Source: an uncultured bacterium
GTDB lineage: Bacteria; Abyssobacteria; SURF-5
DNA: 64,000 bases
Direction of reading: 5' to 3'
Assembly (NCBI GenBank): GCA_964453435.1
Contig: CAYVQZ010000002.1
Coordinates: 179,439-243,438 of the forward strand
Shown: piece after piece, positions 19,923 to 64,000 of the stretch
Position numbering within the stretch: the stretch's first letter is position 1
Layout: each line of letters begins with the position of its first letter
The notes under the pieces: generated by a model
The model's input: the letters and a program-made list of their open reading frames with translations, nothing else
The model's database searches: none
Told to the model about the DNA's origin: nothing
Translations under genes and position numbers: made by a program

Positions 19923-19931
19923 GGTGTTCTC

Positions 19932-35595: not shown

Positions 35596-37785
35596 ATGCT
35601 AGAAAATATTAAAAAGTGCCCATACTGCAAGGAAGAAATCCGTGCCGATGCCATCCGATGCAAGCATTGCCACATGATGCTTAATAAGGAATCTTCTGTT
35701 TCCGATGGATCGGATGTCGCCTCCGCCGGTCCTCTTGATGATGCGGTCACACGGCTTCCCGATGACGTCGGCAGGGTTTTGTCCGACCGATTCGAGATAA
35801 GAGAGCTGATCGCCGAAGGAGGTTTCGGGAAGGTATATCGAGCTTACGACGGGGTGATGAAGATCGATGTTGCGATCAAGGAACTCTCCGACCGCTTTGA
35901 GAAAGACCGGAAGGCGGTCAGGTTCCTCCTGTCGGAGGCAAAGGCCGCTCACGCGCTGGCGCATCCTCGCATCGCGAAGTTTGACTACTACGATGAGAAG
36001 GGTAACTATCTCCTCATGGAGTATGTTCCGGGCCTCGTGGTGGGGGATGCTGTGTGCCACGACGTGGCCCAGCTGCTGGAGGCCCGGGGAGGGAAACTGT
36101 CCGAGGAGGAGGCGACACGGATCATTCTGCAACTGCTCGAAGCGCTCCAATACGCGCACGGTCTGCCCGAGCCGGTCATCCACCGCGATATCAAGCCGCA
36201 GAACCTGCTGCTTGACGCGCAGGGAAACGTGAAGGTATGCGACTTCGGCATCGCAAAGGTGGTGCGGGAGAGCGTGAGCCGGTATGGAATACCCGACACC
36301 AGCGGGACATTGATGTACATGAGTCCGGAACAGTGTGTGGGCAGGGGAGTGGACGCCCGCAGCGACATCTACTCTCTTGGCGTTACCTTGTACGAGCTTC
36401 TGAGCGGAAGGACGCCGTTCGAGGATGCCGAGGACGTCACCTATTGTCACATCAATGTGGAACCCGAGCCGATTCGAGGGGTGGGCGACCGACTGAATGA
36501 GATTGTTCTGAAGTGTCTTGCCAAAAAGCCCGAGGACCGCTGGCAGAACGCCCGCGAGTTGGCCGATGCGCTGGAGGGAAAGATCGAGACGGATTCGGAA
36601 CGCAGGGAGAAGGAAGGAGCACGGGCGGCGCTGAGGAAGCAGGAAGAGGAGCGAAAGCGGAGGGAGAAAGAAGAGGCCGAACGCAAAGCAAAAGAAGAGG
36701 CTGCGCGCCGGCGCGAGCTAGAAGAATCCCGCAGGCTCGGAGAAGAAGAGGAAAGAAGGCAAAAGGAGATCGCCCGACGGTTTGTTCTCCCGAGCATCGA
36801 CCATGAGGAAGCTGCTCGACAGGTCGATGAAGAAAAGCAAAGAAAAGAGGCTGACAGAAAAGCAAGGGAAATGGGAGATAAGTGGAAGAAAATCAGGGCC
36901 CCCGCTGTGACGTTTGCGTTGATATATATTATTGTGGGAGTGGTCGGCGGCGGCATTATTTACTACCGAGCGCAGCCGCGGAAGAAGGCGGAACGCGCCC
37001 GCCGCGAGGCGGCGGTGCGGTATGACCAGCAAGCGAAGACTCTCAGTCCTTCACAAGACACAGTTGAAGAGAAAAAACCTTGGATAGAATTTAGGATCGA
37101 TTCCTCATTATTGAGAGACAGATTAAATGAGATAACTGGGAAAGAGAAACTTGTCTTCCCAGTAATTTTCGAGGAAAGCCCGTTTAGATTTAACGTGTCT
37201 GATGCAATAATGAAAACAAGAGAGATCCAATATACATATAAGAGAAAAGGTGAAGTTTTTGGAGCCGGAAAAGGAGAGTTTGATCGAAACACCGACATAA
37301 TTGACTACGTAGTTTTGCTGCGAATATTTACCTCTTCGAAAATTCCTAAGGACCGCACCAAATTTTTCAGTATGGCCGATTACAGAGCACTTGGAGAGCA
37401 TCTATACTTGGCTGTTGTTTCTTCAGGAACAGATTATATCGATCAATTGAACACAGTATCCATATCGGAGCCCAGCGAGTTTAGATGGGAAGGCAAGAGC
37501 AATATTCCATGGCTTTTTTGCTACGATTTCGATGGGAACGGCCTAGACGAAATCTGTTTAAGCTACATTCAGCCGCGCCAAGGCCCTTATTCTTGCTTCG
37601 AAGTGTATAGACTGGATAGTACCATGAGAAAGCTTGAGAGGATTGTTGATAAGCACGTAAACATCGTAGACCCTCCATATGGAGAGTTGCATTTTGACAG
37701 CGGTTCCCTATTCTTTACGGGAACGTTTTGGGATGATCAGAGGAGAACATTTATTTTGGGAAAGCGCGAGAGGATCTTGCCTTAA
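35596..37785 (+). CDS. Ser/Thr protein kinase: zinc ribbon + kinase + ER/K-rich helix + TM + low-GC C-terminal extracytoplasmic domain (FG-GAP-like DFDGNGLDE motif)
   Basis: [22 protein letters not shown]. Kinase [17 protein letters not shown] tract [42 protein letters not shown] helix at ~aa 440. The C-terminal ~250 aa is AT-rich. Confidence 0.85.
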   Translation: MLENIKKCPYCKEEIRADAIRCKHCHMMLNKESSVSDGSDVASAGPLDDAVTRLPDDVGRVLSDRFEIRELIAEGGFGKVYRAYDGVMKIDVAIKELSDRFEKDRKAVRFLLSEAKAAHALAHPRIAKFDYYDEKGNYLLMEYVPGLVVGDAVCHDVAQLLEARGGKLSEEEATRIILQLLEALQYAHGLPEPVIHRDIKPQNLLLDAQGNVKVCDFGIAKVVRESVSRYGIPDTSGTLMYMSPEQCVGRGVDARSDIYSLGVTLYELLSGRTPFEDAEDVTYCHINVEPEPIRGVGDRLNEIVLKCLAKKPEDRWQNARELADALEGKIETDSERREKEGARAALRKQEEERKRREKEEAERKAKEEAARRRELEESRRLGEEEERRQKEIARRFVLPSIDHEEAARQVDEEKQRKEADRKAREMGDKWKKIRAPAVTFALIYIIVGVVGGGIIYYRAQPRKKAERARREAAVRYDQQAKTLSPSQDTVEEKKPWIEFRIDSSLLRDRLNEITGKEKLVFPVIFEESPFRFNVSDAIMKTREIQYTYKRKGEVFGAGKGEFDRNTDIIDYVVLLRIFTSSKIPKDRTKFFSMADYRALGEHLYLAVVSSGTDYIDQLNTVSISEPSEFRWEGKSNIPWLFCYDFDGNGLDEICLSYIQPRQGPYSCFEVYRLDSTMRKLERIVDKHVNIVDPPYGELHFDSGSLFFTGTFWDDQRRTFILGKRERILP

Positions 37786-41039: not shown

Positions 41040-41240
41040 GTTATAGTCTGAAGAGATTCTTCGGTCGCTCCCTCAGAATGACGGGGAGAGTTTTGGCCGA
41101 ATAAATTCGGCCCTACAGTGGGGAAATAGCGATTGGTTGAATGAATTTGTTCCCACGGGAAGCGAGTTTGGGGCAACATAAATTACCGCAAAGGATAGGG
41201 TCGTTGTAGGTGCGAATTTATTCGCACAGGTTTTTGGCGG
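41040..41240. repeat. REP cluster + MITE arm upstream of RAYT
   Basis: gaagagattcttcggtcgctccctcagaatgacggggagag; ggccgaataaattcggccctacag; ggttgaatgaatttgttccc; gtaggtgcgaatttattcgcacagg. Confidence 0.8.
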
Positions 41241-41277
41241 ATATACCCCGCTTCGATAGAGTAAATCGGTTGGATCG

Positions 41278-41736: not shown

Positions 41737-41900
41737 ATTCGAGCCTACACGGGATTGCCGATGCGGTGCGATTGGCCGAATAAATTCGGCCCTATCCCGC
41801 GAAACGCGGGACTTCGCTATCGCTCAGCGAAATCTGAGAAAATCTGCGGATGAAGAATATATGGTCGAATAAATTCGACCCTACATATTAAACGCATTCA
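41737..41900. repeat. REP cluster + 90-bp hairpin element downstream of RAYT
   Basis: gcctacacgggattgccgatgcggtgcgattggccgaataaattcggccctatcccgcgaaacgcgggacttcgctatcgctcagcgaaatctgagaaaatctgcggatgaagaatatatggtcgaataaattcgaccctacat. Confidence 0.85.
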
Positions 41901-47326: not shown

Positions 47327-47413
47327 GTGGGGTAGAGAAGATGCGATGACTTTCGTACTAGTTTCACAAAACATCAAATATTAGAGATTCGGATCACGCG
47401 TAGGAGGAATGTC

Positions 47414-49045: not shown

Positions 49046-49189
49046 TACACATATGTTCCCCGAAGAGAGGTACAGCTCAGAGTCGAATTGGCAGTGATAA
49101 AGCAGTAAACGGCGAGCTTGCCGGGAATGCTTCTTTTTCATGAAGGCGCCATGGAGGCGCCTTTGTTATTTAGGAAAATTGATATGGGA

Positions 49190-49330
49190 TTCGGCGAAAC
49201 AAAGATTCTTGGTCGAATGAATTCGACCTTACAGGGGATTGCCGATGCGGTGCGAATGGTCGAATGAATTCGACCCTACAAGGGGGCGCTTTTGTAGGCG
49301 CCAATTCATTCGCACGCTCTGTGACAATCG
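49190..49330. repeat. REP cluster
   Basis: ggtcgaatgaattcgaccttacaggggattgccgatgcggtgcgaatggtcgaatgaattcgaccctacaaggg...gtaggcgccaattcattcgcac. Confidence 0.85.
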
Positions 49331-49394
49331 AAGTAACTCGCGGATAGACAAGGAAGAATAGACGGAACCACGGATGGACGCAGATAAACACGGA

Positions 49395-49535
49395 GTGAGA
49401 TGGAATTTTTCGCCCTGTCATCCTGAACCCTTCGGCTTTGCTCAGGATAAACTTCGTGAAAGGTCTCGGGTTGCGGAGAAGTTATTGAGGTTTGTCATTC
49501 TGAGCGCAGCGAAGAATCTCGGTTATTTTCTCGTA
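49395..49535. repeat. MITE-like element copy (gtcatcctgaac...gctcaggataaacttcgtgaaaggtctcgggttgcggagaagttattga..gtcattctgagcgcagcgaagaatctc)
   Basis: About 95% identical to copies at 54810-55010 and 63762-63945; small ORFs in the track (..FVILSAAKNL..) are translations of it. Confidence 0.8.
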
Positions 49536-49579
49536 CTGCCGCGCGAGGCCGAATGAGATGCCGGATAGGATTTCACACT

Positions 49580-49830
49580 GTAGACATTTTTGGCCGAATA
49601 AATTCGGCCCTACAGGGGATTGCCGATGCGGTGCGAATGGTCGAATGAATTCGACCCTATCCCGCGAAACGCGGGACTTCGCTATCGCTCAGCGAAATCT
49701 GAGAAAATCTGCGGATGAAGAACATATGGTCGAATGAATTCGACCCTGCAGGCGGTGGGTTTAGGGCAAGACGAATTACGGCGTAGGGCAATGAAATTGT
49801 AGGCGCCAATTCATTCGCACAGATTGGATA
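49580..49830. repeat. REP cluster + 90-bp hairpin element
   Basis: ggccgaataaattcggccctacagggg...ggtcgaatgaattcgaccctatcccgcgaaacgcgggacttcgctatcgctcagcgaaatctgagaaaatctgcggatgaagaacatatggtcgaatgaattcgaccctgcagg...gtaggcgccaattcattcgcac. Confidence 0.85.
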
Positions 49831-49905
49831 GTATCTGCGGCTATCTGCAAGCGCCTGCGGTTTTGAAACAACTCTTAATTCGGGAATGTGCAGATAAAAA
49901 AACCA

Positions 49906-51924
49906 ATGCCTGACGAGACAAAAAAGTGTCTCTACTGCGGTGAAGAGATACTCGCCGTAGCCATTAAGTGCAAGCATTGCCAGAGCATGCTCGACACGGG
50001 AAGCGGCGACTCACTGGATGATGCTTCCACGCAGGTTCCGGGCATGGAAGACGAATCGCTCGACGGCGCCGCAACGATGCAACACGGGCAGGCCAGGAAA
50101 TTGCTCGCCGGAAGGTATGAGATACTGGAAGAACTCGGCCGGGGCGGGATGGGAATCGTGTTCAAGGGGCGAGATACAAAGCTCGGCACACTGGTGGCAA
50201 TCAAGCTTCTGTCGAAGGAACTGGAGAGCGACCTGCGCGGCATCGAGCTTTTGAAACAGGAAGCCCGCACGGCGATGGATCTCTCCCATCCGAATATTGT
50301 GAAGCTCTACAATTACGAGGAACATGCCGACGGAAGATTCCTCGTCATGGAGTATGTCGAGGGCAAAACGCTCGAGCAGGTCCTGATTCAGAAAAAGAAG
50401 CTGTCGGAGAGAAGGGTCAGGAAATATGCGGTGGGAATCTGCAACGCGCTCCACTACGCTCACTTCAAGGGAGTGATACACAGAGACATCAAGCCATCGA
50501 ATATCATGCTCGATAAGGACGGTAACATTAAAATCACCGATTTCGGCATCGCGCGCACCCTGAAGGACAGCCAGACCCGTCAAACCGGCAGGATTACGAG
50601 CGGCACCCTGCTGTATATGAGCCCGGAACAATTGATGGGCAAGGAGGCGGACGCGCGAAGCGACATCTATTCTCTCGGAATAACGCTGTACGAACTGCTG
50701 CGCGGCGAGCCGCCTTTCACGGGCGGCGACATATCCATGCAGCACCTAAAACGGCCGATAGACCCCATTCCTGAAGTGAGCGAGGAAATGAACCTCATCG
50801 TGCAGAACTGTTGCGCGAAGGAGCTTTCCAACCGCGCGCAGGGCGCCAGACAGGTCCGGAACGCGCTGCTCATTAAGCCCGAAGCAAAGGCAAAAAGGCC
50901 CTCCGGCACGAGTCAAAAGGAAAAACCATCGGTTGCCGTCGAGGCCAAAAGACAAATAGAGATACCTCTTAATAGGCTCGCTCCGCCGATACTTGTCGGC
51001 TGCCTGATAGTCGGCCTCGTCTTGTACCTGGCGAAAGGCCTCATCTCGACGAGTTCGGATGAAGTCACCCCGCAATTGATCATGCCGGTGCAACCTCAAC
51101 CTCAGGAGGGCATCAAACCTCCGCCAACCGAAGCGGAACTTGCCGAGCGGGAGAGTGTTCAAAAAGTCGTCAAAGTAAAGGTCGCCGCCGAGAATGCGAG
51201 GACACGGGCCAAGGTTTCAGGCGCCGAACGGTTCGCGCCTCAAAGCTGGCAGGCGGGCGAGCGGAAATATCAGGAAGGCTTGAGACACGACGGGCAGAAA
51301 GAGCACACGGCGGCGATACAGGCGTTCCAGGCAGCCGCTTCCGAATTCGGTAAATCCGAGACGGCGGCGAAAAAGCTTTCAGCCCAGAGGAAAGCCGAGG
51401 AGGCCCGCAAGGCCCGGCATGCGGCGGAAAAGGCGGAACAGGAGCGGCAAGAGCAACTCGCTGCCAAAAAGTTCGCCGAAGCCGCAAAACGAGTGATGGA
51501 GCAAAAACGGGCGGCCGCGAGCCAGGTGAGCGCGGCGAGCTATGCGCCCGGTGTCTGGAAAGCTGCGGAAGACGAGCGAATTAAGGGGGACGTGTGTCTG
51601 AACCAACAGGACTACAAGTCGGCCGAGAAATGCTATAGCGATGCAAAGAATGCATATCTTAAGGCCCGCGAGCATGCGCGGTTGGAAGCCCTTGACGAAC
51701 AACTGAAAAGCAAGCAAAAAGCAATTGACCAGCGTAAAGAACAGGCATACGATTGGCATATGGACAAGCTCCGACAACTTGAAAGAGCAAAGGCATCTCA
51801 AAGTTATTTTGTATCCGAAAACAACAGATATCACCGCGAACGGGAAGCTCTGGACCAGGAAGAACAGGACGTGCTGGAATGGTACTACAGACAGAAGGAT
51901 TACATTATCAATGATTACGACTGA
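49906..51924 (+). CDS. Ser/Thr protein kinase: zinc ribbon + kinase + TM + coiled coil
   Basis: MPDETKKCLYCGEEILAVAIKCKHCQSML parallels the other paralog N-termini. Kinase GRGGMGIVFKG, HRDIKPSN, DFG. TM LAPPILVGCLIVGLVLYL. Track start GTG 49888 rejected in favour of ATG 49906. Confidence 0.85.
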   Translation: MPDETKKCLYCGEEILAVAIKCKHCQSMLDTGSGDSLDDASTQVPGMEDESLDGAATMQHGQARKLLAGRYEILEELGRGGMGIVFKGRDTKLGTLVAIKLLSKELESDLRGIELLKQEARTAMDLSHPNIVKLYNYEEHADGRFLVMEYVEGKTLEQVLIQKKKLSERRVRKYAVGICNALHYAHFKGVIHRDIKPSNIMLDKDGNIKITDFGIARTLKDSQTRQTGRITSGTLLYMSPEQLMGKEADARSDIYSLGITLYELLRGEPPFTGGDISMQHLKRPIDPIPEVSEEMNLIVQNCCAKELSNRAQGARQVRNALLIKPEAKAKRPSGTSQKEKPSVAVEAKRQIEIPLNRLAPPILVGCLIVGLVLYLAKGLISTSSDEVTPQLIMPVQPQPQEGIKPPPTEAELAERESVQKVVKVKVAAENARTRAKVSGAERFAPQSWQAGERKYQEGLRHDGQKEHTAAIQAFQAAASEFGKSETAAKKLSAQRKAEEARKARHAAEKAEQERQEQLAAKKFAEAAKRVMEQKRAAASQVSAASYAPGVWKAAEDERIKGDVCLNQQDYKSAEKCYSDAKNAYLKAREHARLEALDEQLKSKQKAIDQRKEQAYDWHMDKLRQLERAKASQSYFVSENNRYHREREALDQEEQDVLEWYYRQKDYIINDYD

Positions 51925-51944
51925 CCAATGTGGGGTGAAGGCGC

Positions 51945-53513
51945 GTGAGCATTAAGTGTCTGCAATGCGGCGATCTCAACGATAATCCAGCGAAGTTCTG
52001 CATTCACTGCGGCGAGCAACTGCCGATTGAGGCCGTGTTTACGGATTTGCGATTGAGGCTGCTGACCCGCCAGGAACTGCGGATAGGAGAATTTTCGGTT
52101 TTTGACTGCGAGGTTCTGAACGATTCCTGCCTTCCGGTAACGAATGTGAGCCTCTCCCTGTCAAGTTCGGTATTCGTCAGGAAAAGCGAATGCACTGTCG
52201 ATCTCCTCGAAAGTGCGGCCGGCGAGCGAATCGAACTCGAAGTGGAAGCCGACTCTGAAAAAAAAGGGACCGTTCTTCTTTACATGGCTCTCCGCGGGCT
52301 TGTCGATGGAAAAATTCCGCTTTGTTATAAAGGGCAAACTCGCATAAATGCCGCGCAACCGGTAATCAAAAGAGACAGTGATCAGAAGAAAATCAATATC
52401 GTTGTGGGAAACGACGCGATTTTCGACAGGATTGTCGTGAACGCCGGCGACCCGGATGAGGCTCCGGCCCCTCAGGTCACGGAGGAATGGGTAACCATCC
52501 CATTGAAACGGGACCCGAGTTCCGAGAGGGACTGGTTCGAGCAAATTCGGGCAAAATCGCTTCGCGAATGCCCGTACTGCTCCTGCAAGATTGACGTGCG
52601 CGCCGGGCGATGCGAATTCTGTTCGGCGACGATGCCTTCCTGGTTTTCAAAGCGGCAGGAGGCGCTTCACGAGTTCCGGCATTCGCCACCGCCCCCGTCA
52701 CGGGTCGAGCTGACCATTCCTTCCCTGAACAATAAAGTCTTTCGTTTCTACGTCAACTCACGAATACGGTTTGGAAGACATTCAACGAATGATATTTCGA
52801 CTCTCTTCTATGACGAAAGTGGAGCTCTGGACAGAGACAAGAGCCTGGCAATTAGCAACGAGGCTGGCGAACTTATTGTGGATGGCGGACGCGCCAACCT
52901 GCTCAATATCAACAGATTTGGCGCGCAATTCACGACTCGGCATACGTCCGAATCGATAGAAATCCAGCAAAACGAGAGAATCGAGCTCAAGCAGGGTGGC
53001 ACATTAACGTTCAGTGACACGTGCAGCCTCGATATCAGCCTGTTCACCTCGCAACGCCAGAAAGATATGAGAACGAGCGTGTTGGATGCCCAAGAAGAGA
53101 AGCTTTCTCAAGTGAACTCGCCGCCCGCGCTCGAGCGCCAAAAACAGCGCAGCTCGTGCATTATCTGGCCTGAAAGGCACGTCGAGGCCGTCCGGATATG
53201 CCGGACCGATTCTCCTGCCAATGAGGAGCACATTCTCCTTCAGAACTCCGCCTCAATCGGGAGCGGGGAAAACTGTTGTGTCCAAATCCCGAAGTCAGGG
53301 GTGCAAAAGGTCCATGCTCGCATTATCCGATACGCCGACAGCATATGGTTCGAGAACTGTTCGGGGGCGCCATTGAAATTTGAGACGGGCTCTACGACCC
53401 GGCATCTCAAAAATGACGCGATAATGAAGGTCGAAGCCGATTGTACGGTGAAATTCGAATATCTTGAAACACACCTGAAATTCCGCAGGGAAGCAAGGAT
53501 GGAAGAGTTATGA
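51945..53513 (+). CDS. Zinc-ribbon + two FHA-like domains protein
   Basis: N-terminal CLQCGDLNDNPAKFCIHCG, internal CPYCSCK..CEFC, and FHA-like blocks (VFRFYVNSRIRFGRHSTNDI...; ..SIGSGENCCVQIPKSGVQKVHARIIRY..IWFENCSGAPLKFETG). GTG start. Confidence 0.55.
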   Translation: MSIKCLQCGDLNDNPAKFCIHCGEQLPIEAVFTDLRLRLLTRQELRIGEFSVFDCEVLNDSCLPVTNVSLSLSSSVFVRKSECTVDLLESAAGERIELEVEADSEKKGTVLLYMALRGLVDGKIPLCYKGQTRINAAQPVIKRDSDQKKINIVVGNDAIFDRIVVNAGDPDEAPAPQVTEEWVTIPLKRDPSSERDWFEQIRAKSLRECPYCSCKIDVRAGRCEFCSATMPSWFSKRQEALHEFRHSPPPPSRVELTIPSLNNKVFRFYVNSRIRFGRHSTNDISTLFYDESGALDRDKSLAISNEAGELIVDGGRANLLNINRFGAQFTTRHTSESIEIQQNERIELKQGGTLTFSDTCSLDISLFTSQRQKDMRTSVLDAQEEKLSQVNSPPALERQKQRSSCIIWPERHVEAVRICRTDSPANEEHILLQNSASIGSGENCCVQIPKSGVQKVHARIIRYADSIWFENCSGAPLKFETGSTTRHLKNDAIMKVEADCTVKFEYLETHLKFRREARMEEL

Positions 53514-54694
53514 ACCGACCAAATAGGAACACCTGCAAAAGCTGTGGCTCGCTCATCGCCCCGGACAAAAGCCTCTGCAGAAAATGTGAAATGAAAACAG
53601 GAGCGAAGCCTGGCGACATGAGTTCGAGAATCGCAGAGATGGAAGCGGCGACTTCACAGCGCCTGGCGGAAATGGAAAAGAGGCGGCAGGGCTTGGCCGA
53701 AAGCCTCGATACCTCGTTGCAGGAGAGATTGACGGCGAAGAAGAAAACCGAAACCCCCGCCTCCGTCGCTGAATCCCAGGAGACCCGAACGGCGGACGCC
53801 GACCCGCTCGAGGCGCAAAACCCCGGCGCGTTCGCCAAGCTCGAGCGGCTCTGCTCGGAGATCCGCCATTCGATTGTCGAGGCATGTTTTTACAACTTGA
53901 AGCTGCAATCTCAACTGTTGCCGAAAAAGGTCGGGTCAACTGATTTCATGCAGGAATTTCGTCGCAACCTCTCGCAGTTGCCTGCGGTCGCTTCCAGGTT
54001 ACAGGATTTTTTTAATCAAGAAATCGATGCACGCTTGAAGGTTTCTTCCCTTTTCAAGGAGGAATATGGGCGAGTAATGAATGGCCTGCAGCGCCTGAAG
54101 GGGACATCCTCCGAAAACGGCGAGCCAGCAGATGAATCGATCGAGGCCGCAAGGAACATTTCGGAATCGATTGACACGATTGTTGCGGGCCTGCAATCGA
54201 TTGACGACCGGGTCAGGAAGAATAAGGTTGACGTGAAAGACCTCCTTACAGGTGTTGCGGCGGCTTCGAGAGAGCGATGCGAGGAAGCCGGGGTGAAATT
54301 GTCCGTTCATTTACCCGATGGCTCCTTTCCCAGGGTGTATTCGACCGGAAGCCTCCTCTCGGACGTCCTCCACGAACTCATTCGCAATTCGCTCAAGCAT
54401 GCGTTCCCGCTGGCTGCCGCCGTGGAGAAATGCATTGAAATCGTTGCGGACATGAGCGAGGAACCCAACCGCTCGATCATCATTCAGGTCGCGGACAACG
54501 GGCAGGGATTCCCCTTGGAAACATTGGAGCGCGCTCGGACCGAAGAAACTCCGGCAAATGGCAATGGCTACGGGCTTCCCATGGTTATCCACAACATCGA
54601 GAACCTGCATGGAGGGCAGGTAACCTGCGACAGTTCACCGGAGAACGGAACGAAATTTGTCATCAGCATACCGACCAGGCCTCCGAAAGAATAA
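53510..54694 (+). CDS. Zinc-ribbon + coiled-coil + HATPase_c (GHKL) protein without recognisable His phospho-acceptor box
   Basis: N-terminal CKSCGSLIAPDKSLCRKCE. C-terminal N-box LHELIRNSLKHAF, G1 DNGQGFP, G2 GYGLPMV. ATGA overlap with the upstream FHA gene. Confidence 0.6.
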   Translation: MNRPNRNTCKSCGSLIAPDKSLCRKCEMKTGAKPGDMSSRIAEMEAATSQRLAEMEKRRQGLAESLDTSLQERLTAKKKTETPASVAESQETRTADADPLEAQNPGAFAKLERLCSEIRHSIVEACFYNLKLQSQLLPKKVGSTDFMQEFRRNLSQLPAVASRLQDFFNQEIDARLKVSSLFKEEYGRVMNGLQRLKGTSSENGEPADESIEAARNISESIDTIVAGLQSIDDRVRKNKVDVKDLLTGVAAASRERCEEAGVKLSVHLPDGSFPRVYSTGSLLSDVLHELIRNSLKHAFPLAAAVEKCIEIVADMSEEPNRSIIIQVADNGQGFPLETLERARTEETPANGNGYGLPMVIHNIENLHGGQVTCDSSPENGTKFVISIPTRPPKE

Positions 54695-54809
54695 GCCTCA
54701 TGAAGCTCACAAAATCTGTCGGCAAAATCCGATCCAGGGCCGAATTCATTCGGCCAGTTTTCGATTGTCAACCTTTGCGCCCTGACTTTTATTCTGAGCT
54801 TCCTGAATG

Positions 54810-55110
54810 TCATCCTGGCGCGCTCGCTGTCTTTCTGAGCGTTAGCGAAGAATCTCAGGATAAACTTCGTGAAAGGTCTCGGGTTGCGGAGAAGTTATTG
54901 ATGTTTGTCATTCTGAGCGCAGCGAAGAATCTTGTTTTTAAAGAAGTTATCTTGTGGAAGAGATTCTTCGGTCGCTCCGCTCCCTCAGAATGACAGGGAG
55001 AGACCGTCAGAACGATCAGAATCATAGGGAAGGAATCTGGCCGAATAAATTCGACCCTACAGGTGGGCGGATTGTGTAGGCGCGAATTCATTCGCACAGA
55101 TTTGATATAT
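54810..55110. repeat. Full MITE-like element with ~38-bp terminal inverted repeats, followed by REP palindromes
   Basis: gtcatcctggcg...tgtcattctgagcgcagcgaagaatct...gaagagattcttcggtcgctccgctccctcagaatgacagggagag; then ggccgaataaattcgaccctacagg and gtaggcgcgaattcattcgcac. Confidence 0.85.
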
Positions 55111-55158
55111 CGGCGTGCATCTGCGGTTGCAGGGACTCATTAGCAGGGATAAACTCTC

Positions 55159-58100
55159 ATGCCCGAAGATTTGAAAAATTGCCTTAATTGCAATACGCAA
55201 CTTGGCAAAGATGACTCCGTCTGCCCGAATTGCGGCCTCGAGGTTCATGTGGACCACTTGGACGACCAGCCGACCCGGCTGGCTGGCGGTCCACTCGTAG
55301 GCGGTGAGCCGGGGACCGGAGAATTGCTCGACGACGCCGAAACCGTATTAGGAGCGCAGAGAGAAGGGTTGGGATTTGATTCTTCGCTGACTCGTGAATC
55401 CGCAACCCGTAGCAGGTACCGGATACTCGACACACTCGGCGAGGGCGGTATGGGAGTGGTCTACAAGGCCGAGGACACCAAGCTCCGCCGCACCGTCGCG
55501 ATCAAAAGACTGCTTCCGAAAGCCGAAGCCCAGCAGAAAGGTCTCGACCGATTCCTGCGGGAGGCGCACGTTGTCGCAGGCCTGAACCACATCAACATCG
55601 TGAATGTCTTTGACATAGAGCGGGACGCGAAGGGTCCGTTCATCGTAATGGAGTACGTGGAAGGAAAGAGCCTGGAGAGGGTTATCGAAGAGGAAGGGAA
55701 GATTGAGGAATCACGGGCGATAGAGCTGTTCAAGCAGGTATGTCAGGCAATCGGGTATGCCCACAGAGTGGATATCATCCATCGAGATATAAAACCGGCA
55801 AACATTATCATTACTTCCGACGGCGTTCCCAAGGTGCTGGACTTCGGGCTGGCGCAGATGGCGACCGAGTCGGATCTCTCGAAGACGGGCTACGGCATGG
55901 GCACGATGTACTACATGCCGCCGGAGCAGACGAGGGACGCGAAGAATGTCGACCACCGGGCGGATATCTATGCGCTTGGCGCCACGCTGTATCACATGCT
56001 GACCGGCGAGCGTCCGAAGCTGATAAAGGCCGACAAACTCTCTGCGGGACTGAAGGCTTTGGTCTTCAAATGCATGGAAGAGAATCCGCGGGACAGATAT
56101 TTCAGCATATCCGAAATTCTTGTTGACGTAGAGTCTTCCGTTTCGGCAAAAGACTCGAAGCCACCGAGACTGGAGTCGGAGGACGCCTGCCACAACTGCG
56201 GCTATGTCAACCCCGAAAGCGCGCGTTTCTGCAAGGCATGCGGCACGGGTTTGTTCGAGAAATGCCCGAAATGCGAGGGCGAGAACCGAGTCGGCTCGAA
56301 ATACTGCATGTCGTGCGGGCTCAACATACCGGACTTCAGGAAAGCCCGTGAGCATACCCAGCGCGCGCAGGAGTATCTCAAAAATTACAAATATTCCCGC
56401 GCCATCAAGGAACTTAAAGCAGCCCTCCAACTTGAGGTCGGGAAGATAGAAATGGAAGCTTTGCTCGCGACAGCGGAAGAGAGCCTGGCAAAGCTCAATG
56501 CACACAAAGAGAGAGCCCAAACGCTCAAGCGCGAAGAGAAATATAAGGAAGCAGAGCAAGAAATCTTGAAGGCGCTCGAACTCGACCCATCCGATGATTC
56601 CGCCGAAGAACTGAGGAGGGAAATCGGCGCTCTCATTCAGGAAGAACATCTGGCTAAAGCCGAGGCTCTGAGACGTGAATACAAATTTGAGGAGGCGGCA
56701 GCCGAATATCAACTGGTCCTGGAGCGGAACTCGGCCCATGAGAGAGCAATAAAGGCGCATAAAGAGGTCCGGGAAATCCTCGATAGTATTCTGAACCACA
56801 AAAAGAGAGCGGACGCGTTGCTCGAGCAGAAGAGATATCAGCAAGCGATAGATGAATATGAACAGATACTGAGCCTTGCGCCGACTGATGCATATGCCAA
56901 GGGTTCTGTAAAGAAGTGCCAGAAGCTACTTGAGGAAATTGAGTCGCTCAACAGGAAAGCGAACGAGGCGCTTGCCGACAAAGCATTTCCAGACGCCATA
57001 CAATTTCTGCAAAGGCTTCTCAATCTTTCTGACGATGTCGAGTCAGTTACGCATAAGCTCGAATTAGCGCGAAGCGCGCAAAAGCAAATAGTTGCCCATC
57101 TCAAGGAGGGCCGCAGACTTGCAGATAACGGCCGATACGATGAGGCGATAGAAGAGTACCGGAAAGTCCTCTCTGTTGACAGAGAACACTCGAAAGCCTC
57201 CGAGGAACTGGCTCGAATCGGGCAAACTGTTAGAGAAATAGAGAAGCTGGAAGAAGACCTGACGGCAAGCCTGGACAGGGGAGACTTTGCCGAAGCGGTT
57301 CGCCTCATACAGGCCCTGCAAGAGCACAAGCGTGATACGAAGTGGGCGGAGAACCTGTTGCAGGAGGCAAAGTCAAAGGAGGCAAGGATACGGGCGCACT
57401 ACAACGCCGCGACCAATTGGTATGGTGTCAGGAAGTATTGCAAATCAATCAGAGAAGCCGAGCGCATACTCGAAATAGCGCCATCCCATGCGGGGGCGTT
57501 GGAGATAATCGAGAAATCGAGAAGAAAAATCTCATTAATGTTGAAAGGCTTCGCGGCACTCGTGATACTCGGTCTCTCAATCGCGTTGGTCGCATACATC
57601 TCTTATCAAATTCGCAATTATTCAAAATATGTGGAGCAGGCCGAGGAAGCATTCAAGCAGGAAAAATGGGTGGAGGCGAGCAGCTACTGCATGGAGGCGC
57701 TGGAGCTCAATTCCGACGGCAAGAGAGCACTACAACTCTTGGCTGAACTGGCGCCGGCGTTGGAGACAATTGCCCAAGATGCCCGAGAGGAAGCCTTGAG
57801 CGCAAGAAAAACCGCTGAAGATGCGATGGCGCCTCTCTATGCCAAAACGACTTACGAGAGCGCCTCCAGGAGCCATGCCGAGGCGGATTCCCATTTTGGA
57901 GCAAACGGTTTTGGCCCGGCTGCACAAGCGTACAGGGGCGCCGCCGAGCAGTATCAGAACGCAACGAGCGAGGCAAAAACCGCAATGGCCAAAGCGAAGG
58001 AAGAGGCTGACAGGGAAAAATCAGCGCTCGGGGAGACGAAAAACAAGATTGATGCGCAGAAAGCAGGAAGCTATGCCCGTGAATCATTCGAGGCGGGCAA

Positions 58101-58761
58101 GCAGGCTGAGCGGTCAGCAAGTATTGAATATGACAAACAACGCTATGCGGCGGCGGCTCAAAAATATCGCCAAGCACATGCCTATTATAAAAATGTCTTA
58201 GAGCATGTCAGCAGAGCAATGGCCGAGGAAGAACTGCGCAAGCAAGCTGCTAAGGCGAGGGTGGCGATGGAGGGGTTGCTTGATGCGGCAAAGGAGGCAG
58301 AGGCACCGAAGTATGCCTCATCAGAGTTCACTTCTGCCGAGCAAGAGAGAAAGAAGGCGGAGGAATATGACCGGCGAGGAAACAGTCAACTGGCAAAGAC
58401 ATACTACGAGAAAGCCCAATCCTTATATGAGAATTCCGTTCGAACGGCTAGGCAGGAAAAGGCCCGGCTCGAGGCCACTGCGAAGAAAGCTGAGAGAATG
58501 GAAGGGCTGGTAAATTTCCTCGTTTGGCTTGTTCTGATACTTTTTTGCTTTTTTATAGCGCGTGCATTGTCCCGTTTGAGCTTTAGAGGTGGTTGTGGGT
58601 TTCTGATTTTCATATTCTTAGTAGTGCTGCCTATTTTACAGATTGTAATGGACGAATATTTTGATTCTGTAACTAAGGTGAAAATGATGGCGCCCATAAC
58701 GATTTTATTTACGATAGTTGCAACGATATTCCTTATTTTAAAAGCTCCGCGCCACCTATAA
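55159..58761 (+). CDS. Ser/Thr protein kinase: zinc ribbon + kinase + triple zinc-ribbon module + TPR repeats + TM + TPR/coiled coil + C-terminal multi-TM segment
   Basis: 1200 aa. CLNCNTQLGKDDSVCPNCG. Kinase motifs. CHNCGYV..CKACG..CPKCEGE..CMSCG. TPR-like helices. TM helices at ~aa 795 and at the C-terminus. Confidence 0.85.
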   Translation: MPEDLKNCLNCNTQLGKDDSVCPNCGLEVHVDHLDDQPTRLAGGPLVGGEPGTGELLDDAETVLGAQREGLGFDSSLTRESATRSRYRILDTLGEGGMGVVYKAEDTKLRRTVAIKRLLPKAEAQQKGLDRFLREAHVVAGLNHINIVNVFDIERDAKGPFIVMEYVEGKSLERVIEEEGKIEESRAIELFKQVCQAIGYAHRVDIIHRDIKPANIIITSDGVPKVLDFGLAQMATESDLSKTGYGMGTMYYMPPEQTRDAKNVDHRADIYALGATLYHMLTGERPKLIKADKLSAGLKALVFKCMEENPRDRYFSISEILVDVESSVSAKDSKPPRLESEDACHNCGYVNPESARFCKACGTGLFEKCPKCEGENRVGSKYCMSCGLNIPDFRKAREHTQRAQEYLKNYKYSRAIKELKAALQLEVGKIEMEALLATAEESLAKLNAHKERAQTLKREEKYKEAEQEILKALELDPSDDSAEELRREIGALIQEEHLAKAEALRREYKFEEAAAEYQLVLERNSAHERAIKAHKEVREILDSILNHKKRADALLEQKRYQQAIDEYEQILSLAPTDAYAKGSVKKCQKLLEEIESLNRKANEALADKAFPDAIQFLQRLLNLSDDVESVTHKLELARSAQKQIVAHLKEGRRLADNGRYDEAIEEYRKVLSVDREHSKASEELARIGQTVREIEKLEEDLTASLDRGDFAEAVRLIQALQEHKRDTKWAENLLQEAKSKEARIRAHYNAATNWYGVRKYCKSIREAERILEIAPSHAGALEIIEKSRRKISLMLKGFAALVILGLSIALVAYISYQIRNYSKYVEQAEEAFKQEKWVEASSYCMEALELNSDGKRALQLLAELAPALETIAQDAREEALSARKTAEDAMAPLYAKTTYESASRSHAEADSHFGANGFGPAAQAYRGAAEQYQNATSEAKTAMAKAKEEADREKSALGETKNKIDAQKAGSYARESFEAGKQAERSASIEYDKQRYAAAAQKYRQAHAYYKNVLEHVSRAMAEEELRKQAAKARVAMEGLLDAAKEAEAPKYASSEFTSAEQERKKAEEYDRRGNSQLAKTYYEKAQSLYENSVRTARQEKARLEATAKKAERMEGLVNFLVWLVLILFCFFIARALSRLSFRGGCGFLIFIFLVVLPILQIVMDEYFDSVTKVKMMAPITILFTIVATIFLILKAPRHL

Positions 58762-58979
58762 CAATCATTGTGATTTTCGAAAGGTCACACGCATAGCTTT
58801 TTGTCGTGAAATGGATTCCAGCTTTCGCGGGAATGGCAAGGAAAAAGCTTTCATCCGCTCAATTCGTTGCAATTTGTGGTATTCGTGTTCCAAAAGTTTG
58901 GATGTGGCTACGCTACGCCATGTAACGCGTTAACTTCTTTGAAAACGAGATCCTTCAATACGTTCAGGATGACAACGGA

Positions 58980-59160
58980 GAAACGGTGGTTCTCAGCATG
59001 TTATTTTGTCATTCTGAGGAAGCGCAGCGACCGAAGAATCTCAATCATTTTCTTGTACTACAAATGAACGCGAGGCTGAATGACATACCGGGTAAGATTT
59101 TAAACTTTAGACATTTTTGGTCGAATGAATTCGGGCCCACAGAGATGCGATTAAAGGCAT
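58980..59160. repeat. MITE arm + REP
   Basis: tgtcattctgaggaagcgcagcgaccgaagaatctc; ggtcgaatgaattcgggcccacag. Confidence 0.7.
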
Positions 59161-59182
59161 CGGAGGGTAACTGAAATCAATT

Positions 59183-61645
59183 ATGGCTGAAGACCTGAAG
59201 ATATGTCGGAATTGCGGCGCGCCGCTGAGCGAGAACCAGTTGATGTGCCCGGCCTGCGGAACGCGATGGGGCACGGATGCACTCGATGCTGAACCGACGC
59301 AACTGGCCGGCCACGCAAAAATCCAGGGCGAGTCGCTCGATGACGCCGAGACCATACTGAAAGAGCAGGGCATCGGGCCGGGACTTGATTCCACGGTAAC
59401 CAGCGAATCCGCAACCCGTAGCAGGTACCGGATACTCGACACACTCGGCGAGGGCGGTATGGGAGTGGTCTACAAGGCCGAGGACACCAAGCTCCGCCGC
59501 ACCGTCGCGATCAAAAGACTGCTTCCGAAAGCCGAAGCCCAGCAGAAAGGTCTCGACCGATTCCTGCGGGAGGCGCACGTTGTCGCAGGCCTGAACCACA
59601 TCAACATCGTGAATGTCTTTGACATAGAGCGGGACGCGAAGGGTCCGTTCATCGTAATGGAGTACGTGGAAGGAAAGAGCCTGGAGAGGGTTATCGAAGA
59701 GGAAGGGAAGATTGAGGAATCACGGGCGATAGAGCTGTTCAAGCAGGTATGTCAGGCAATCGGGTATGCCCACAGAGTGGATATCATCCATCGAGATATA
59801 AAACCGGCAAACATTATCATTACTTCCGACGGCGTTCCCAAGGTGCTGGACTTCGGGCTGGCGCAGATGGCGACCGAGTCGGATCTCTCGAAGACGGGCT
59901 ACGGCATGGGCACGATGTACTACATGCCGCCGGAGCAGACGAGGGACGCGAAGAATGTCGACCACCGGGCGGATATCTATGCGCTTGGCGCCACGCTGTA
60001 TCACATGCTGACCGGCGAGCGTCCGAAGCTGATAAAGGCCGACAAACTCTCTGCGGGACTGAAGGCTTTGGTCTTCAAATGCATGGAAGAGAATCCGCGG
60101 GACAGATATTTCAGCATATCCGAAATTCTTGTTGACGTAGAGTCTTCCGTTTCGGCAAAAGACTCGAAGCCACCGAGACTGGAGTCGGAGGACGCCTGCC
60201 ACAACTGCGGCTATGTCAACCCCGAAAGCGCGCGTTTCTGCAAGGCATGCGGCACGGGTTTGTTCGAGAAATGCCCGAAATGCGAGGGCGAGAACCGGGT
60301 AGGCTCGAAATACTGCATGTCGTGCGGGCTGAACATTCCTGACTTTAAGAAATCTCAGGAGCATCTGCAGCGCGCCCAGGAATACCTGAAGGAATACAAG
60401 TACTCGCGCGCGATAAAGGAACTGAAGGCCGCGCTGGAGCTCGAGGTCGAGAAGGCGGAGCTTCAAAGCCTTCTCTCGGAAGCCCAGGAAAAACTTTCGC
60501 GGCTTAACGAGCACCGAGAGAAGGCCGAAGTCCAGAAGCAGGATGGAAGCTACGAAGAAGCCGAACAAGCGGTTCTCGCAGCGATTGACTTGGACCCACA
60601 TGATGAAACGCTTCATTTGTTAAAGGGTGACATCCAGAATTTGATTCAGGAGATGCATCTGCGCGAAGCGCGCGCCAAGGCGGAACAAGAAGATTATGAA
60701 GGGGCGCTTTGTGGATGCGATAAGGTGTTCAAGTACAATCCGAACAATCGTGAGGCGAGCGAATTGCGTGACGAAGTTCTCGCCAACACAAAGAGGAAGG
60801 TCGAATTCATCTGTGCGAAGATAAAAGAGAGTCGCGCTCGCATTAACATCGAAGTCGCCGAAGGGCTGCGTCATTCGAGGTATATGCAGGGGGAGAAAGA
60901 ATGCCGACTTGCCGAAGAGGCGTTAAACTGTGGAGAGATAGGAAAGGCGCTTCGTTATTACAATCAATCGCTGGAGCAATATAGCGCTGCGGCGCGGGAA
61001 CTGGCTATTTATGATGCTTTGCCGCTCAAGTTTGAGAACTCTGTCGGCATGGAATTTGTTCTGATACCGGCGGGCGAGTTCATGATGGGCAGCCCTGAGG
61101 GCGAGGGAGACTATGATGAGCGCCCGCAACACAAAGTGATAATAACCAGACCCTTCTATATGCAGACCACTCCCGTTACACAAGCGCAGTGGAAGAAGGT
61201 GATTGGCAGGAAATTCTTGAGGAGAACCAAAAACCCATCGTACTTCAAGGGGGATGACCTGCCTGTGGAGAGAGTCAGTTGGAAAGATGCGCAGAGATTT
61301 CTGGAAAAGCTGAATCAGAAGGAACAAAAGGGAAGGTATCGCCTGCCGACGGAGGCCGAGTGGGAGTACGCATGCCGCGCCGGAAGCGCGACGAAATACT
61401 CATTCGGCAATGACGAGGGCAGGCTTGGCGAGTACGCCTGGTATGATAAAAACTCCGGCGGAAAAACGCACCCGGTGGGCCAGAAGAAGCCGAACGCCTG
61501 GGGCCTGTATGACATGCACGGCAACGTGTGGGAGTGGTGCTCGGACTGGTACGACAAGGACTACTATCGTAACAGCCCTTCACGGAACCCGAAGGGTCCA
61601 ACGAACGGTCGGTATCGCGTGCTTCGCGGCGGCTCGTGGTCTTAG
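59183..61645 (+). CDS. Ser/Thr protein kinase: zinc ribbon + kinase + zinc-ribbon module + TPR + FGE-sulfatase domain interrupted by in-frame TAG
   Basis: Nucleotides 59405-60297 are 100% identical to 55396-56288. FGE domain [18 protein letters not shown]...RVLRGGSWS then TAG at 61643-61645. Confidence 0.8.
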   Translation: MAEDLKICRNCGAPLSENQLMCPACGTRWGTDALDAEPTQLAGHAKIQGESLDDAETILKEQGIGPGLDSTVTSESATRSRYRILDTLGEGGMGVVYKAEDTKLRRTVAIKRLLPKAEAQQKGLDRFLREAHVVAGLNHINIVNVFDIERDAKGPFIVMEYVEGKSLERVIEEEGKIEESRAIELFKQVCQAIGYAHRVDIIHRDIKPANIIITSDGVPKVLDFGLAQMATESDLSKTGYGMGTMYYMPPEQTRDAKNVDHRADIYALGATLYHMLTGERPKLIKADKLSAGLKALVFKCMEENPRDRYFSISEILVDVESSVSAKDSKPPRLESEDACHNCGYVNPESARFCKACGTGLFEKCPKCEGENRVGSKYCMSCGLNIPDFKKSQEHLQRAQEYLKEYKYSRAIKELKAALELEVEKAELQSLLSEAQEKLSRLNEHREKAEVQKQDGSYEEAEQAVLAAIDLDPHDETLHLLKGDIQNLIQEMHLREARAKAEQEDYEGALCGCDKVFKYNPNNREASELRDEVLANTKRKVEFICAKIKESRARINIEVAEGLRHSRYMQGEKECRLAEEALNCGEIGKALRYYNQSLEQYSAAARELAIYDALPLKFENSVGMEFVLIPAGEFMMGSPEGEGDYDERPQHKVIITRPFYMQTTPVTQAQWKKVIGRKFLRRTKNPSYFKGDDLPVERVSWKDAQRFLEKLNQKEQKGRYRLPTEAEWEYACRAGSATKYSFGNDEGRLGEYAWYDKNSGGKTHPVGQKKPNAWGLYDMHGNVWEWCSDWYDKDYYRNSPSRNPKGPTNGRYRVLRGGSWS

Positions 61646-61735
61646 GCCGGGGGCGTGCGGGCGGCGCTCCGGTACGGCGACACGCCGACGGGCGCGAGCA
61701 GCAACGTCGGTTTTCGTTGCGCCCAGGATAAATAA
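61646..61735 (+). other. In-frame post-stop continuation encoding the conserved end of the FGE-sulfatase domain (AGGVRAALRYGDTPTGASSNVGFRCAQDK*)
   Basis: Same frame as the kinase ORF, immediately after the TAG. It matches the paralog C-termini (..[14 protein letters not shown] / ..RSAYRDIGTP..VGFRCAKD). Confidence 0.7.
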
Positions 61736-61799
61736 TTACCACTTAGCTCCTTTAGAACTTTACCAGTTGCAATGCCGCGCAATGCGCGGCATCGAAAAT

Positions 61800-62140
61800 A
61801 TTTTTTGGAAATTGGAATCGTGGAAGAGATTCTTCGGTCGCCGCGCTCCCTCAGAATGACAGGGAGGGTTTTGGTCGAATGAATTCGGATTCATGGTGTG
61901 TAGGTGCGAATTCATTCGCACACGGTGTTGGTCGAATAAATTCGACCCTACGTGAGAACGCGGATATTGGTGCGATTGGCCGAATAAATTCGGCCCTATC
62001 CCGCGAAACGCGGGACTTCGCTATCGCTCAGCGAAATCTGAGAAAATCTGCGGATGAACAACAGATGGTCGAATGAATTCGACCCTACAGGGGGATTGTG
62101 GATTATGCAGGCGCGAATTCATTCGCACAATTGTCTGTCA
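61800..62140. repeat. MITE arm + dense REP cluster + 90-bp hairpin element
   Basis: gaagagattcttcggtcgccgcgctccctcagaatgacagggagg; ggtcgaatgaattcggat; gtaggtgcgaattcattcgcac; ggtcgaataaattcgaccctacg; ggccgaataaattcggccctatcccgcgaaacgcgggacttcgctatcgctcagcgaaatctgagaaaatctgcggatgaacaacagatggtcgaatgaattcgaccctacaggg; gcaggcgcgaattcattcgcac. Confidence 0.85.
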
Positions 62141-62238
62141 TCTGCGTGAATCAGCGGTTAATAAGACAACAAAGGCAAATAACAATATCGGAATCAACCA
62201 CAACCTATGGATATCGGCAATAAAGCAGAGAAAAAATC

Positions 62239-63729: not shown

Positions 63730-63761
63730 GTCCGCGGTCTGTGATTTTACGAATTTACTTC

Positions 63762-63945
63762 TGTCATTCTGAGGGAGCCGAAGCTCAGGATAAACTTCGT
63801 GAAAGGTCTCGGGTTGCGGAGAAGTTATTGATGTTTGTCATTCTGAGCCAAGCGAAGAATCTCTTTTTTAAAGAAGGGATCGCGCAGAAGATATTCTTCG
63901 GTCGCTGCGCTCCCTCAGAATGACAGGGAAGGCGACTCTCGGGCA
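63762..63945. repeat. Full MITE-like element copy with terminal inverted repeats
   Basis: ctgtcattctgagggagccgaagctcaggataaacttcgtgaaaggtctcgggttgcggagaagttattgatgtttgtcattctgagccaagcgaagaatctc...gatattcttcggtcgctgcgctccctcagaatgacaggg. Confidence 0.85.
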
Positions 63946-64000
63946 ACTATACATAACGACATAAATAATTGCGCATAATCTCCTTTCCTGTTATACTCAA

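Follow-up and report, generated by a model that had tools for sequence, protein, structure and literature searches.

Gene conversion between paralogs is an established, RecA-dependent process in bacteria (PMC8022953; PMC6053082). In tufA and tufB (Abdulkarim & Hughes 1996, as summarised in PMC8022953) and in other prokaryotic protein-coding paralogs under concerted evolution (Wang & Chen 2018, PMC6053082), these sources describe non-reciprocal recombination as keeping the copies identical or nearly so, synonymous sites included, and the copies resemble each other more than they resemble homologs from other genomes. The same pattern is presented by a pair of tandem genes encoding Hanks-type Ser/Thr kinases, here designated K1 and K2, in a 64,000-nt stretch (hereafter, the window) of contig CAYVQZ010000002.1 from an uncultured bacterium of the Abyssobacteria (assembly GCA_964453435.1). 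An earlier note on this DNA had claimed 100% identity between positions 55396-56288 and 59405-60297, and a string comparison confirms that the two segments agree letter for letter over 893 nt, at an offset of 4009 nt. Gene conversion of ~0.9 kb between these tandem paralogs, which form part of a modular kinase cluster, is very probably the best explanation for this identity. The case differs from that of the tuf genes, in which the whole gene is homogenised, the products have the same function and the copies lie far apart, whereas in K1 and K2 an internal module of ~0.9 kb is shared by proteins of different architecture encoded 4 kb from each other. The 26 genes for which concerted evolution was reported in PMC6053082 include no kinase, and the word "kinase" has 0 occurrences in that text.

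Other described systems share particular aspects with this locus. In rRNA operons, RecA-dependent conversion is far faster than mutation input and near-identity is a steady state (PMC8022953), but these operons differ from K1/K2 in being non-coding, highly expressed and selected for dosage, in having many donor copies, and in being homogenised as whole operons and not as a domain. Partial mosaic tracts within an expanded paralog family, as seen here, have been described for the PE/PPE and ESX genes of Mycobacterium tuberculosis (PMC12046097, PMC13061034, PMC1762029). According to these accounts, such tracts are easily missed or distorted by short-read assembly, as with K1/K2, and their conversion is mainly discussed as a source of surface and antigen diversity, whereas in K1/K2 it is the conserved catalytic core that is converted and the variable parts that are left untouched. 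The deletion chimeras of icd/icdC and manB/cpsG in Escherichia coli (PMC13626634) involve the same substrate, namely in-phase direct repeats of paralogous coding sequence. In those pairs the deletion did take place, whereas K1/K2 present neither crossover nor deletion, both genes are kept, and the chimera is a prediction. Non-reciprocal copying from nearby paralogous sequence into an expressed gene, as in K1/K2, is also the basis of the Neisseria pilE/pilS and Borrelia vlsE systems, which rely on silent, partial cassettes and move a variable segment between conserved borders. In contrast, K1 and K2 are two complete genes, and a conserved core has been copied between variable borders. Finally, an atlas of bacterial serine/threonine kinases (bioRxiv 10.1101/2025.01.12.632604) describes the same architectures, with a kinase domain followed by TPR, transmembrane or FGE-sulfatase segments; the terms "tandem", "paralog" and "zinc ribbon" have 0 occurrences each in its text. 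In the literature collection searched, gene conversion together with Hanks-type kinases was mentioned in one paper, a review of post-translational modifications in archaea (PMC7226565), and the run accession gave no match. The K1/K2 tract is therefore an event of known type, the gene conversion of bacterial paralogs, in a new gene family: unsurprising to a specialist, and a clean example.

The two copies of the tract share the same codon phase in two same-strand open reading frames, and all four junctions are in frame. The earlier note had described the tract as covering the kinase domain and a triple zinc-ribbon module. The kinase domain is indeed contained in it, but the zinc module corresponds to a double zinc ribbon (Pfam DZR). 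Of its four CxxC knuckles, the exact tract contains three, and the last one falls in the next 33 nt, which are near-identical. The alignment of the flanks, which the same note had proposed as a means of defining the tract boundaries, locates an abrupt 5' edge and a 3' edge lying within 56288-56321. On the 5' side, four of the eight bases immediately upstream already differ, and indels are needed further upstream in the alignment. The N-terminal parts ahead of the tract are diverged, as claimed, with exact lengths of 79 codons in K1 and 74 codons in K2 in place of the ~75 given for both. On the 3' side, the only other exact run of at least 15 nt at this offset spans 29 nt (56293-56321), and the tract can alternatively be read as one of 926 nt with 2 mismatches (56289 and 56292). 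As a consequence of these two mismatches and the exact run behind them, the 3' end is slightly fuzzy and could be placed anywhere in 56288-56321. Only 2 of the 11 third codon positions in 56289-56321 differ, against ~5.5 expected at the level of divergence of the flank, and this edge may represent the end of a heteroduplex or patch repair, or else two later mutations. Beyond it, nucleotide identity between K1 and K2 declines from 79% to 67%, 57% and 53%, with third-position identities of 0.30-0.53. The claim that everything after ~56300/60310 is diverged holds in this sense, but homology persists for ~130 codons, along which protein identity falls from 89% to ~40%, before the sequences become unrelated.

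The contrast between the tract and its flanks is most pronounced at synonymous sites. Across the 297 codons of the tract, both nonsynonymous (dN) and synonymous (dS) divergence are 0 (Nei-Gojobori method, NG86). In the 44 codons directly 3' of it, the proteins are 89% identical, yet third positions are only 50% identical and dS is ~2.7, that is, saturated. Over the 79 N-terminal codons, third positions are 0.31-0.51 identical, and dS, where it can be calculated, is 1.2. Given that the synonymous sites of the flank are scrambled in spite of 89% protein conservation, purifying selection cannot account for the identity of the tract. We also performed a GENECONV-style test on a codon alignment of K1, K2 and an outgroup (625 polymorphic sites, 10,000 permutations). 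K1 and K2 are identical over 266 consecutive polymorphic sites, whereas the longest run under permutation averaged 11 and reached a maximum of 26.

The outgroup, g2, is a gene on a 7.5-kb ENA contig (L025) and its product (P0002) is the closest relative found, with 61% amino acid identity. In the first 30 codons, nucleotide identity is 0.51 between K1 and K2 and 0.64 between either of them and g2, and in codons 412-441 it is 0.64 between K1 and K2, 0.76 between K1 and g2, and 0.66 between K2 and g2. Inside the tract, K1 and K2 are identical (1.00) and each is 0.52-0.83 identical to g2. Outside the tract, therefore, K1 and K2 are at least as distant from each other as either is from g2, and inside it they are the same; on the basis of these distances, the two genes appear to be old paralogs carrying a tract that is young or continually renewed. 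No closer sequence emerged elsewhere: a scan of genome contigs with K1 returned nothing above 43% identity, a metagenome scan with a 42-nt stretch of the tract gave no match, a metagenome profile scan recovered kinases at no more than 49% identity, and the protein database holds no third copy of the kinase module.

These comparisons bear directly on the notion that no sequence was transferred at all, and that the identity reflects either extreme purifying selection or codon constraint, or a very recent duplication of the whole gene followed by fast divergence of the flanks. The kinase domain is the most conserved part of the protein in every array examined, which such an account would predict. 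Nevertheless, selection on the protein does not freeze synonymous sites, as the flank with 89% protein and 50% third-position identity makes plain, and the very same domain is merely 52-83% identical to its closest homolog. A duplication young enough to leave 893 nt untouched is also incompatible with saturated dS and indels in the flanks. We regard this explanation as exceedingly improbable.

Independent support for the arrangement of the locus comes from Logan, a k=31 assembly of public reads. A Logan contig of 3,176 nt found in 3 samples (SRR7048220_50664, here L109) corresponds exactly to window positions 56259-59434, spanning the last 30 nt of copy 1, the 3' part of K1, the spacer and the first 30 nt of copy 2. 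Its start, 30 nt before the end of copy 1, had been predicted ahead of the look-up of the product of 56260-58761, and the 31-mers repeated in the window predict the ends of L109 and of a further contig, L108, to the base. In an assembly independent of the NCBI contig, L109 hence places the 3' part of K1, the spacer and the 5' part of K2 contiguously. The reads themselves, and not the choice of assembler, account for the four junctions, the branch points and the tandem order. Two Logan contigs from the start of the window (L106 and L107) both stop at 9395, which is likewise an intergenic repeat, and present 0 and 1 mismatches to the window over 9,395 nt, indicating that the sampled population is nearly clonal. 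A neighbouring product (P0121) is also found in the Logan assemblies of runs SRR7048218 and SRR7048220, and searches for the exact products of K1, K2 and the histidine kinase encoded upstream gave no match.

Several points detract from the case for gene conversion. It draws on a single, moderately close outgroup, and all pairs of N-terminal parts are 39-49% identical, so that they single out no ortholog of K1 or K2 among the two L025 kinases. The dependence on RecA would follow by analogy with published work on bacterial gene conversion (PMC8022953). As to the donor, the GC content at third codon positions, which is 0.72 in the tract, 0.63-0.70 in the K2 flanks and 0.55-0.58 in the K1 flanks, weakly suggests K2 as the source, or else GC-biased repair. 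In addition, the read graphs back the boundaries and the order, and the interior identity of the copies rests on the assembled contig. The locus takes the form of a simple loop, A-R-B-R-C, in which the repeat node R is written twice (A, B and C standing here for graph segments), and bubble popping could erase small differences between the two passages.

This last point is the core of an alternative in which the exactness of the tract was made by the assembly. A similar segment would have been collapsed into one graph node and written out twice, so that the true copies differ somewhat and both the 100% figure and the extreme recency are overstated. In agreement with it, the Logan contigs end exactly at the edges of the repeat, so the read graph is a loop of the kind that assemblers resolve by re-using R; the NCBI assembly is the only source of full-length K1 and K2 proteins, which both come from one contig (P0003 for K1 and P0001 for K2, both NCBI entries from the 243,438-bp contig); and the public data are present in run-based Logan assemblies, consistent with assembly from a read graph. 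However, sequences with the 50% third-position identity of the flanks cannot merge, and near-identity is a prerequisite for any collapse, so the contrast with the flanks stands either way. The boundaries derived from reads and those of the contig agree to the base, and patches with 92-93% identity in two other kinases of the window (B and C) and in L025 were assembled without collapse, which indicates that partial homogenisation is real in this family. We consider an assembly-made exactness unlikely, and it would alter only the claim of perfect identity. The warning of assembly collapse given in the earlier note was nonetheless fair: tract boundaries and tandem order are upheld by the k=31 assembly, and the exact interior identity could arise by construction.

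The same graph is formally compatible with A-R-C accompanied by a circular R-B, which would mean that the two copies do not reside in one genome. The chromosome would then carry a chimeric gene with the N-terminal part of K1, the tract and the C-terminal part of K2, and the segment with the C-terminal part of K1 and the N-terminal part of K2 would reside on a 4,009-bp circle or in a second strain. Chimeric genes left behind by deletion between paralogs have been described (PMC13626634), but a 4-kb circle devoid of a replication function would not persist at assembly-level coverage, and a second strain fits poorly with a population showing 0-1 mismatches in 9.4 kb across runs. The contig for segment B is identical in 3 samples, and the reading frames of K1 and K2 are intact over all four junctions. 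Such an arrangement is very improbable.

Table 1. Coordinates of the K1/K2 tract, the genes that carry it and related kinase features. Positions refer to the window, except for the features of L039, L063 and L084, which are given on their own contigs.
Feature	Position	Strand	Basis or remark
K1, Hanks-type Ser/Thr kinase, 1200 aa	55159..58761	+	Open reading frame, translation, Pfam
Copy 1, exact tract	55396..56288	+	K1 residues 80-376; kinase domain and first one and a half zinc ribbons
Fuzzy 3' tract edge	56289..56321	+	Mismatches at 56289 and 56292, then 29-nt exact run
K1 3' flank, homologous but anciently diverged, start of TPR region	56322..56720	+	K2 counterpart at ~60331-60730
K1-K2 intergenic spacer, 421 nt	58762..59182	.	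REP-like repeats; within Logan contig L109
K2, Hanks-type kinase, 820 aa	59183..61645	+	Open reading frame, translation, Pfam
Copy 2, exact tract	59405..60297	+	K2 residues 75-371; string identity
K2 FGE-sulfatase, second half	61344..61639	+	91% to kinase C (40386-40681), 82% to kinase A (34874-35169)
K2 FGE-sulfatase frame beyond TAG	61646..61735	+	AGGVRAALRYGDTPTGASSNVGFRCAQDK then stop; alignment with A and C; translation
Kinase A	32713-35583		
Kinase B	35596-37785		
Kinase C	38537-40840		
Kinase D	49888-51924		
B/C patch	35617..36850 vs 38558-39790	+	~1.2 kb, ~93% identity
L039, tandem kinase paralogs	130-2667, 6947-9886, 9986-12583		
L063, tandem kinase paralogs	5301-7850, 7847-10447, 11696-14128		
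L084, tandem kinase paralogs	886-3570, 3982-6663		

The data are consistent with a homology-dependent, non-reciprocal ectopic gene conversion without crossover, in which a segment of ~0.9 kb comprising the catalytic domain together with the greater part of the double zinc ribbon next to it would have been copied from one gene into the other, each gene keeping its own N- and C-terminal parts. A break or gap in one copy would have led to RecA-type strand invasion of the paralog 4 kb away, followed by repair without crossover. The ends of the tract would have been set by the loss of homology, abruptly at the indel-rich linker on the 5' side and as a short mosaic on the 3' side. The kinase domain would be converted preferentially as the sole part of the two genes that is similar enough to recombine, and the process is probably recurrent, amounting to concerted evolution and not to one event. 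The outcome is non-reciprocal: both loci are intact, each with its own flanks, and no crossover product is found.

The earlier note had proposed that the paralogs, which lie 4 kb from each other, underwent gene conversion or recombination very recently. The event as such is supported by the contrast between a dS of 0 and saturated flanks and by the distances to the outgroup, whereas "very recent" has to be softened. Published rates are ~1e-10 per bp per generation for mutation and range from 2e-8 (tuf) to ~1e-5 per donor pair (rRNA) for conversion (PMC8022953). From these rates, the mutation input into 2 x 893 bp is ~2e-7 per generation, and with zero differences the last conversion can be placed no more precisely than within a time on the order of 1e7 generations. 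Frequent conversion that outpaces mutation input could just as well produce such identity as a steady state, and the identity does not necessarily date one event.

Further origins of the repeat were considered and rejected. Tandem duplication of a 4-kb unit would yield 4 kb of identity, and not 0.9 kb within saturated flanks. The insertion of a mobile element does not fit a tract that is in frame and colinear in both genes, and whose ends are unmarked in the repeat scan and in pairwise alignment. Programmed cassette conversion of the pilE/pilS kind was discarded on the grounds that both partners are complete open reading frames with their own starts, separated by a 421-nt spacer, and that it is the core that is shared and the borders that vary. 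A diversity-generating retroelement would call for repeats that differ mostly at template adenines and for a reverse transcriptase alongside them. Here the repeats are identical, and the window shows no other trace of a retroelement than what is probably a degenerate remnant of a group II intron, at a distance of 23 kb.

K1 encodes, in order, an N-terminal zinc ribbon, the kinase domain, the double zinc ribbon, TPR repeats, a hydrophobic (transmembrane-like) segment, a long coiled-coil region and C-terminal hydrophobic segments, with the hydrophobic segments and the coiled-coil judged by eye from the translation. Its Pfam matches are Pkinase (6e-51), DZR (5e-12, residues 344-387) and TPR_2 (3e-19). 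K2 presents the same order up to the double zinc ribbon, followed by a short TPR stretch and an FGE-sulfatase-like domain, and matches Pkinase (3e-51) and FGE-sulfatase (4e-52), the latter only at profile positions 4-222 of 255. The motifs of Hanks-type kinases (GEGGMGVV, VAIKRL, HRDIKPAN and DFGLA) are found in both translations. Matches of ~250 bits to defence-kinase families (PADLOC PD-T4-6 and others) cover the generic kinase domain only (for instance, model positions 7-208 of 486), and matches to NCBIfam MAD6 and PglW are far under their cut-offs; neither K1 nor K2 reaches any curated NCBIfam cut-off. Since all NCBIfam and PADLOC matches are either limited to the generic kinase domain or far below cut-off, K1 and K2 are treated as unclassified Hanks-type kinases and are not filed under any defence family. 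The spacer between the two genes contains REP-like repeats, with GTCATTCTGAGG...GAAGAATCTC at 59007-59042 and a palindrome at 59107-59147, and promoter and terminator scans returned nothing decisive.

The FGE-sulfatase domain of K2 is ended early by an in-frame TAG at 61643-61645, as seen in the alignment with the paralogous kinases A and C. Past this codon, the frame continues for 29 further codons, including the conserved GFRC motif, up to a second stop. The nonsense codon thus appears to sit 30 codons ahead of the ancestral stop, and the FGE-sulfatase (SUMF1-like) domain encoded by K2 is incomplete, with its GFRC-bearing remainder lying after the TAG. Unless the TAG stems from the assembly or is a variant of one strain, K2 is either in decay or was truncated recently. 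The 3' part of K2 also contains exact matches of 33 nt and 40 nt to paralogs A and C, which likely break k=31 contigs at this point.

K1 and K2 belong to a cluster of at least six modular Hanks-type kinases, of which the window carries six, namely K1, K2, A, B, C and D (Table 1). Most of the six carry an N-terminal zinc ribbon, and they differ in their sensor or anchoring C-termini, which contain FGE-sulfatase, SPOR or TPR segments or none that was recognised. The patch of similarity between B and C spans the N-terminus, the kinase domain and ~100 further codons, with third-position identities of 0.78-1.0 and an exact run of 195 nt (36289-36483 = 39230-39424), and the C-termini of the two proteins are unrelated. 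At the sequence level, this similarity looks like an older or layered conversion of the K1/K2 kind. In the FGE-sulfatase domains of A, C and K2, the second halves present third-position identities of 0.70-0.86, against 0.3-0.5 for the first halves, and a segment of A (34130-34353, 224 nt, in-phase) is 78% identical to the C-terminal region of K1 (58253-58476). Modules hence seem to have been exchanged over more than 20 kb in the cluster.

Comparable patches were identified outside the window. On L025, two tandem kinases have 299 nt in common at 92% identity (2792-3090 vs 6985-7283), in a patch whose start within the kinase domain nearly coincides with that of the K1/K2 tract, and the downstream kinase is truncated after the N-lobe. 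A self-BLAST search over 105 fetched loci identified three unrelated metagenomic arrays (L039, L063 and L084) of kinase-TPR and kinase-PD40 paralogs. Their kinase domains contain patches with third-position identities of 0.8-0.95, next to equally conserved protein segments at 0.42-0.55 and C-terminal parts at 0.2-0.4, and the boundaries of the patches vary from pair to pair. The comparison of these sequences suggests that arrays of this type commonly undergo gene conversion limited to the kinase domain. Domain-scale exchange recurs in them, and the K1/K2 tract is its most recent visible product. The same L025 contig also carries a 305-nt exact repeat (1751-2055 = 2168-2472) in a caspase-like gene upstream of its kinases.

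The recurrence of such patches raises the question of whether homogenisation is selected, in the sense that identical catalytic and zinc-ribbon modules would give differently sensing kinases the same output, be it substrates, partners or heterodimerisation. This argument parallels that of functional uniformity for the tuf genes. The restriction of the patches to a domain in B/C, in L025, where the 5' boundary is nearly the same as in K1/K2, and in three unrelated arrays would agree with it, as would the enrichment of long-lasting prokaryotic concerted evolution among genes whose products belong to the same complex (PMC6053082). The same distribution is, however, expected neutrally if only the kinase domain is similar enough to recombine, a condition that reinforces itself, and the nonsense codon in the sensor domain of K2 argues against strong selection on that gene. 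Selected homogenisation is a conceivable contributor to the gene conversion of K1 and K2, although we hold it to be rather unlikely.

The kinase cluster is interspersed with repeats. REP-like intergenic repeats border nearly every gene in it (38183-38470, 41066-41893, 49199-49850, 54850-55130, 58986-59147, 61820-62160 and 63741-63952). They include 14 copies of the palindrome GGYCGAATRAATTCGRCC and a repeat unit, GTCATTCTGAGGGAGCG...CGACCGAAGAATCTC, present in both orientations, and form composite units of ~160 nt that are up to 94% identical. It is exactly at these intergenic repeats, for which no matching Rfam family was found, that the k=31 Logan contigs end.

Most consecutive genes in 46019-62000 start with a CxxC...CxxC zinc ribbon. 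They encode two proteins of unknown function, a Band 7/SPFH protein, kinase D, an FHA-like protein, a protein with a histidine-kinase ATPase, K1 and K2. This zinc-ribbon start extends to the more upstream kinases A, B and C, and such an N-terminal tag across a whole signalling cluster is unusual. In the zinc-ribbon protein encoded at 46019-47326 (+ strand), residues 127-435 match the first 313 of the 1903 positions of the NCBIfam model for anti-phage ProA (2e-83); as the protein has no more than this N-terminal part, the score of 281 bits falls far short of the 1500-bit cut-off. A short distance upstream of kinase A lies the 5' part of a group II intron (31523-31756, + strand; RF02005, 118 bits). 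No match to domain V/VI of such an intron was found, and a short open reading frame (32113-32436, + strand) resembles, by eye, the C-terminal end of an intron maturase. The whole segment (31523-32436) is probably a degenerate remnant.

At a greater distance, the window contains a type I restriction-modification locus encoding HsdR, HsdS and HsdM (16096-24535, - strand), the last as a fusion with a GIY-YIG nuclease domain. The locus also encodes a TIR-domain protein (20159-21262), which gave weak ThsB-like and SAVED-TIR matches, and a protein of the 23S-rRNA-IVP family (19242-19922), and the region may be a small defence island. An anaerobic respiratory-type cluster (2759-9228), arranged around a gene at 3423-5825 (+ strand), encodes a molybdopterin oxidoreductase together with multihaem cytochromes and a 4Fe-4S protein. 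Among named lineages, the oxidoreductase is closest to sequences from Candidatus Abyssubacteria (52-57%) and Candidatus Poribacteria (49%), and these low identities indicate that the host lineage is poorly sampled.

The K1/K2 tract leaves the current understanding of recombination unchanged. It provides a clear case, from a poorly sampled anaerobic lineage, of partial conversion that affects only a single domain in each of two multi-domain signalling proteins, and it has consequences for how such families are analysed. Trees of bacterial Ser/Thr kinases based on the kinase domain only can group paralogs by genome and thereby mislead the timing of duplications. Arrays of this kind are also fragile, both in assemblies, through repeat collapse, and in genomes, through deletion: recombination between the two 893-nt direct repeats would remove 4,009 bp, and its predicted product is an in-frame chimera of the N-terminal part of K1 and the C-terminal part of K2. 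For the kinases themselves, the presence of identical catalytic and zinc-ribbon modules on different input modules would predict that K1 and K2 share substrates. It is tempting, if doubtful, to extend this to a general and possibly selected trait of tandem Ser/Thr kinase arrays, in which domain-restricted conversion would keep catalytic modules uniform while sensors diverge or are swapped. Were this so, K1/K2 would be the freshest case and the patches in B/C, in the L025 pair and in L039, L063 and L084 would be older ones, and an array would act as many inputs wired to one shared output module.

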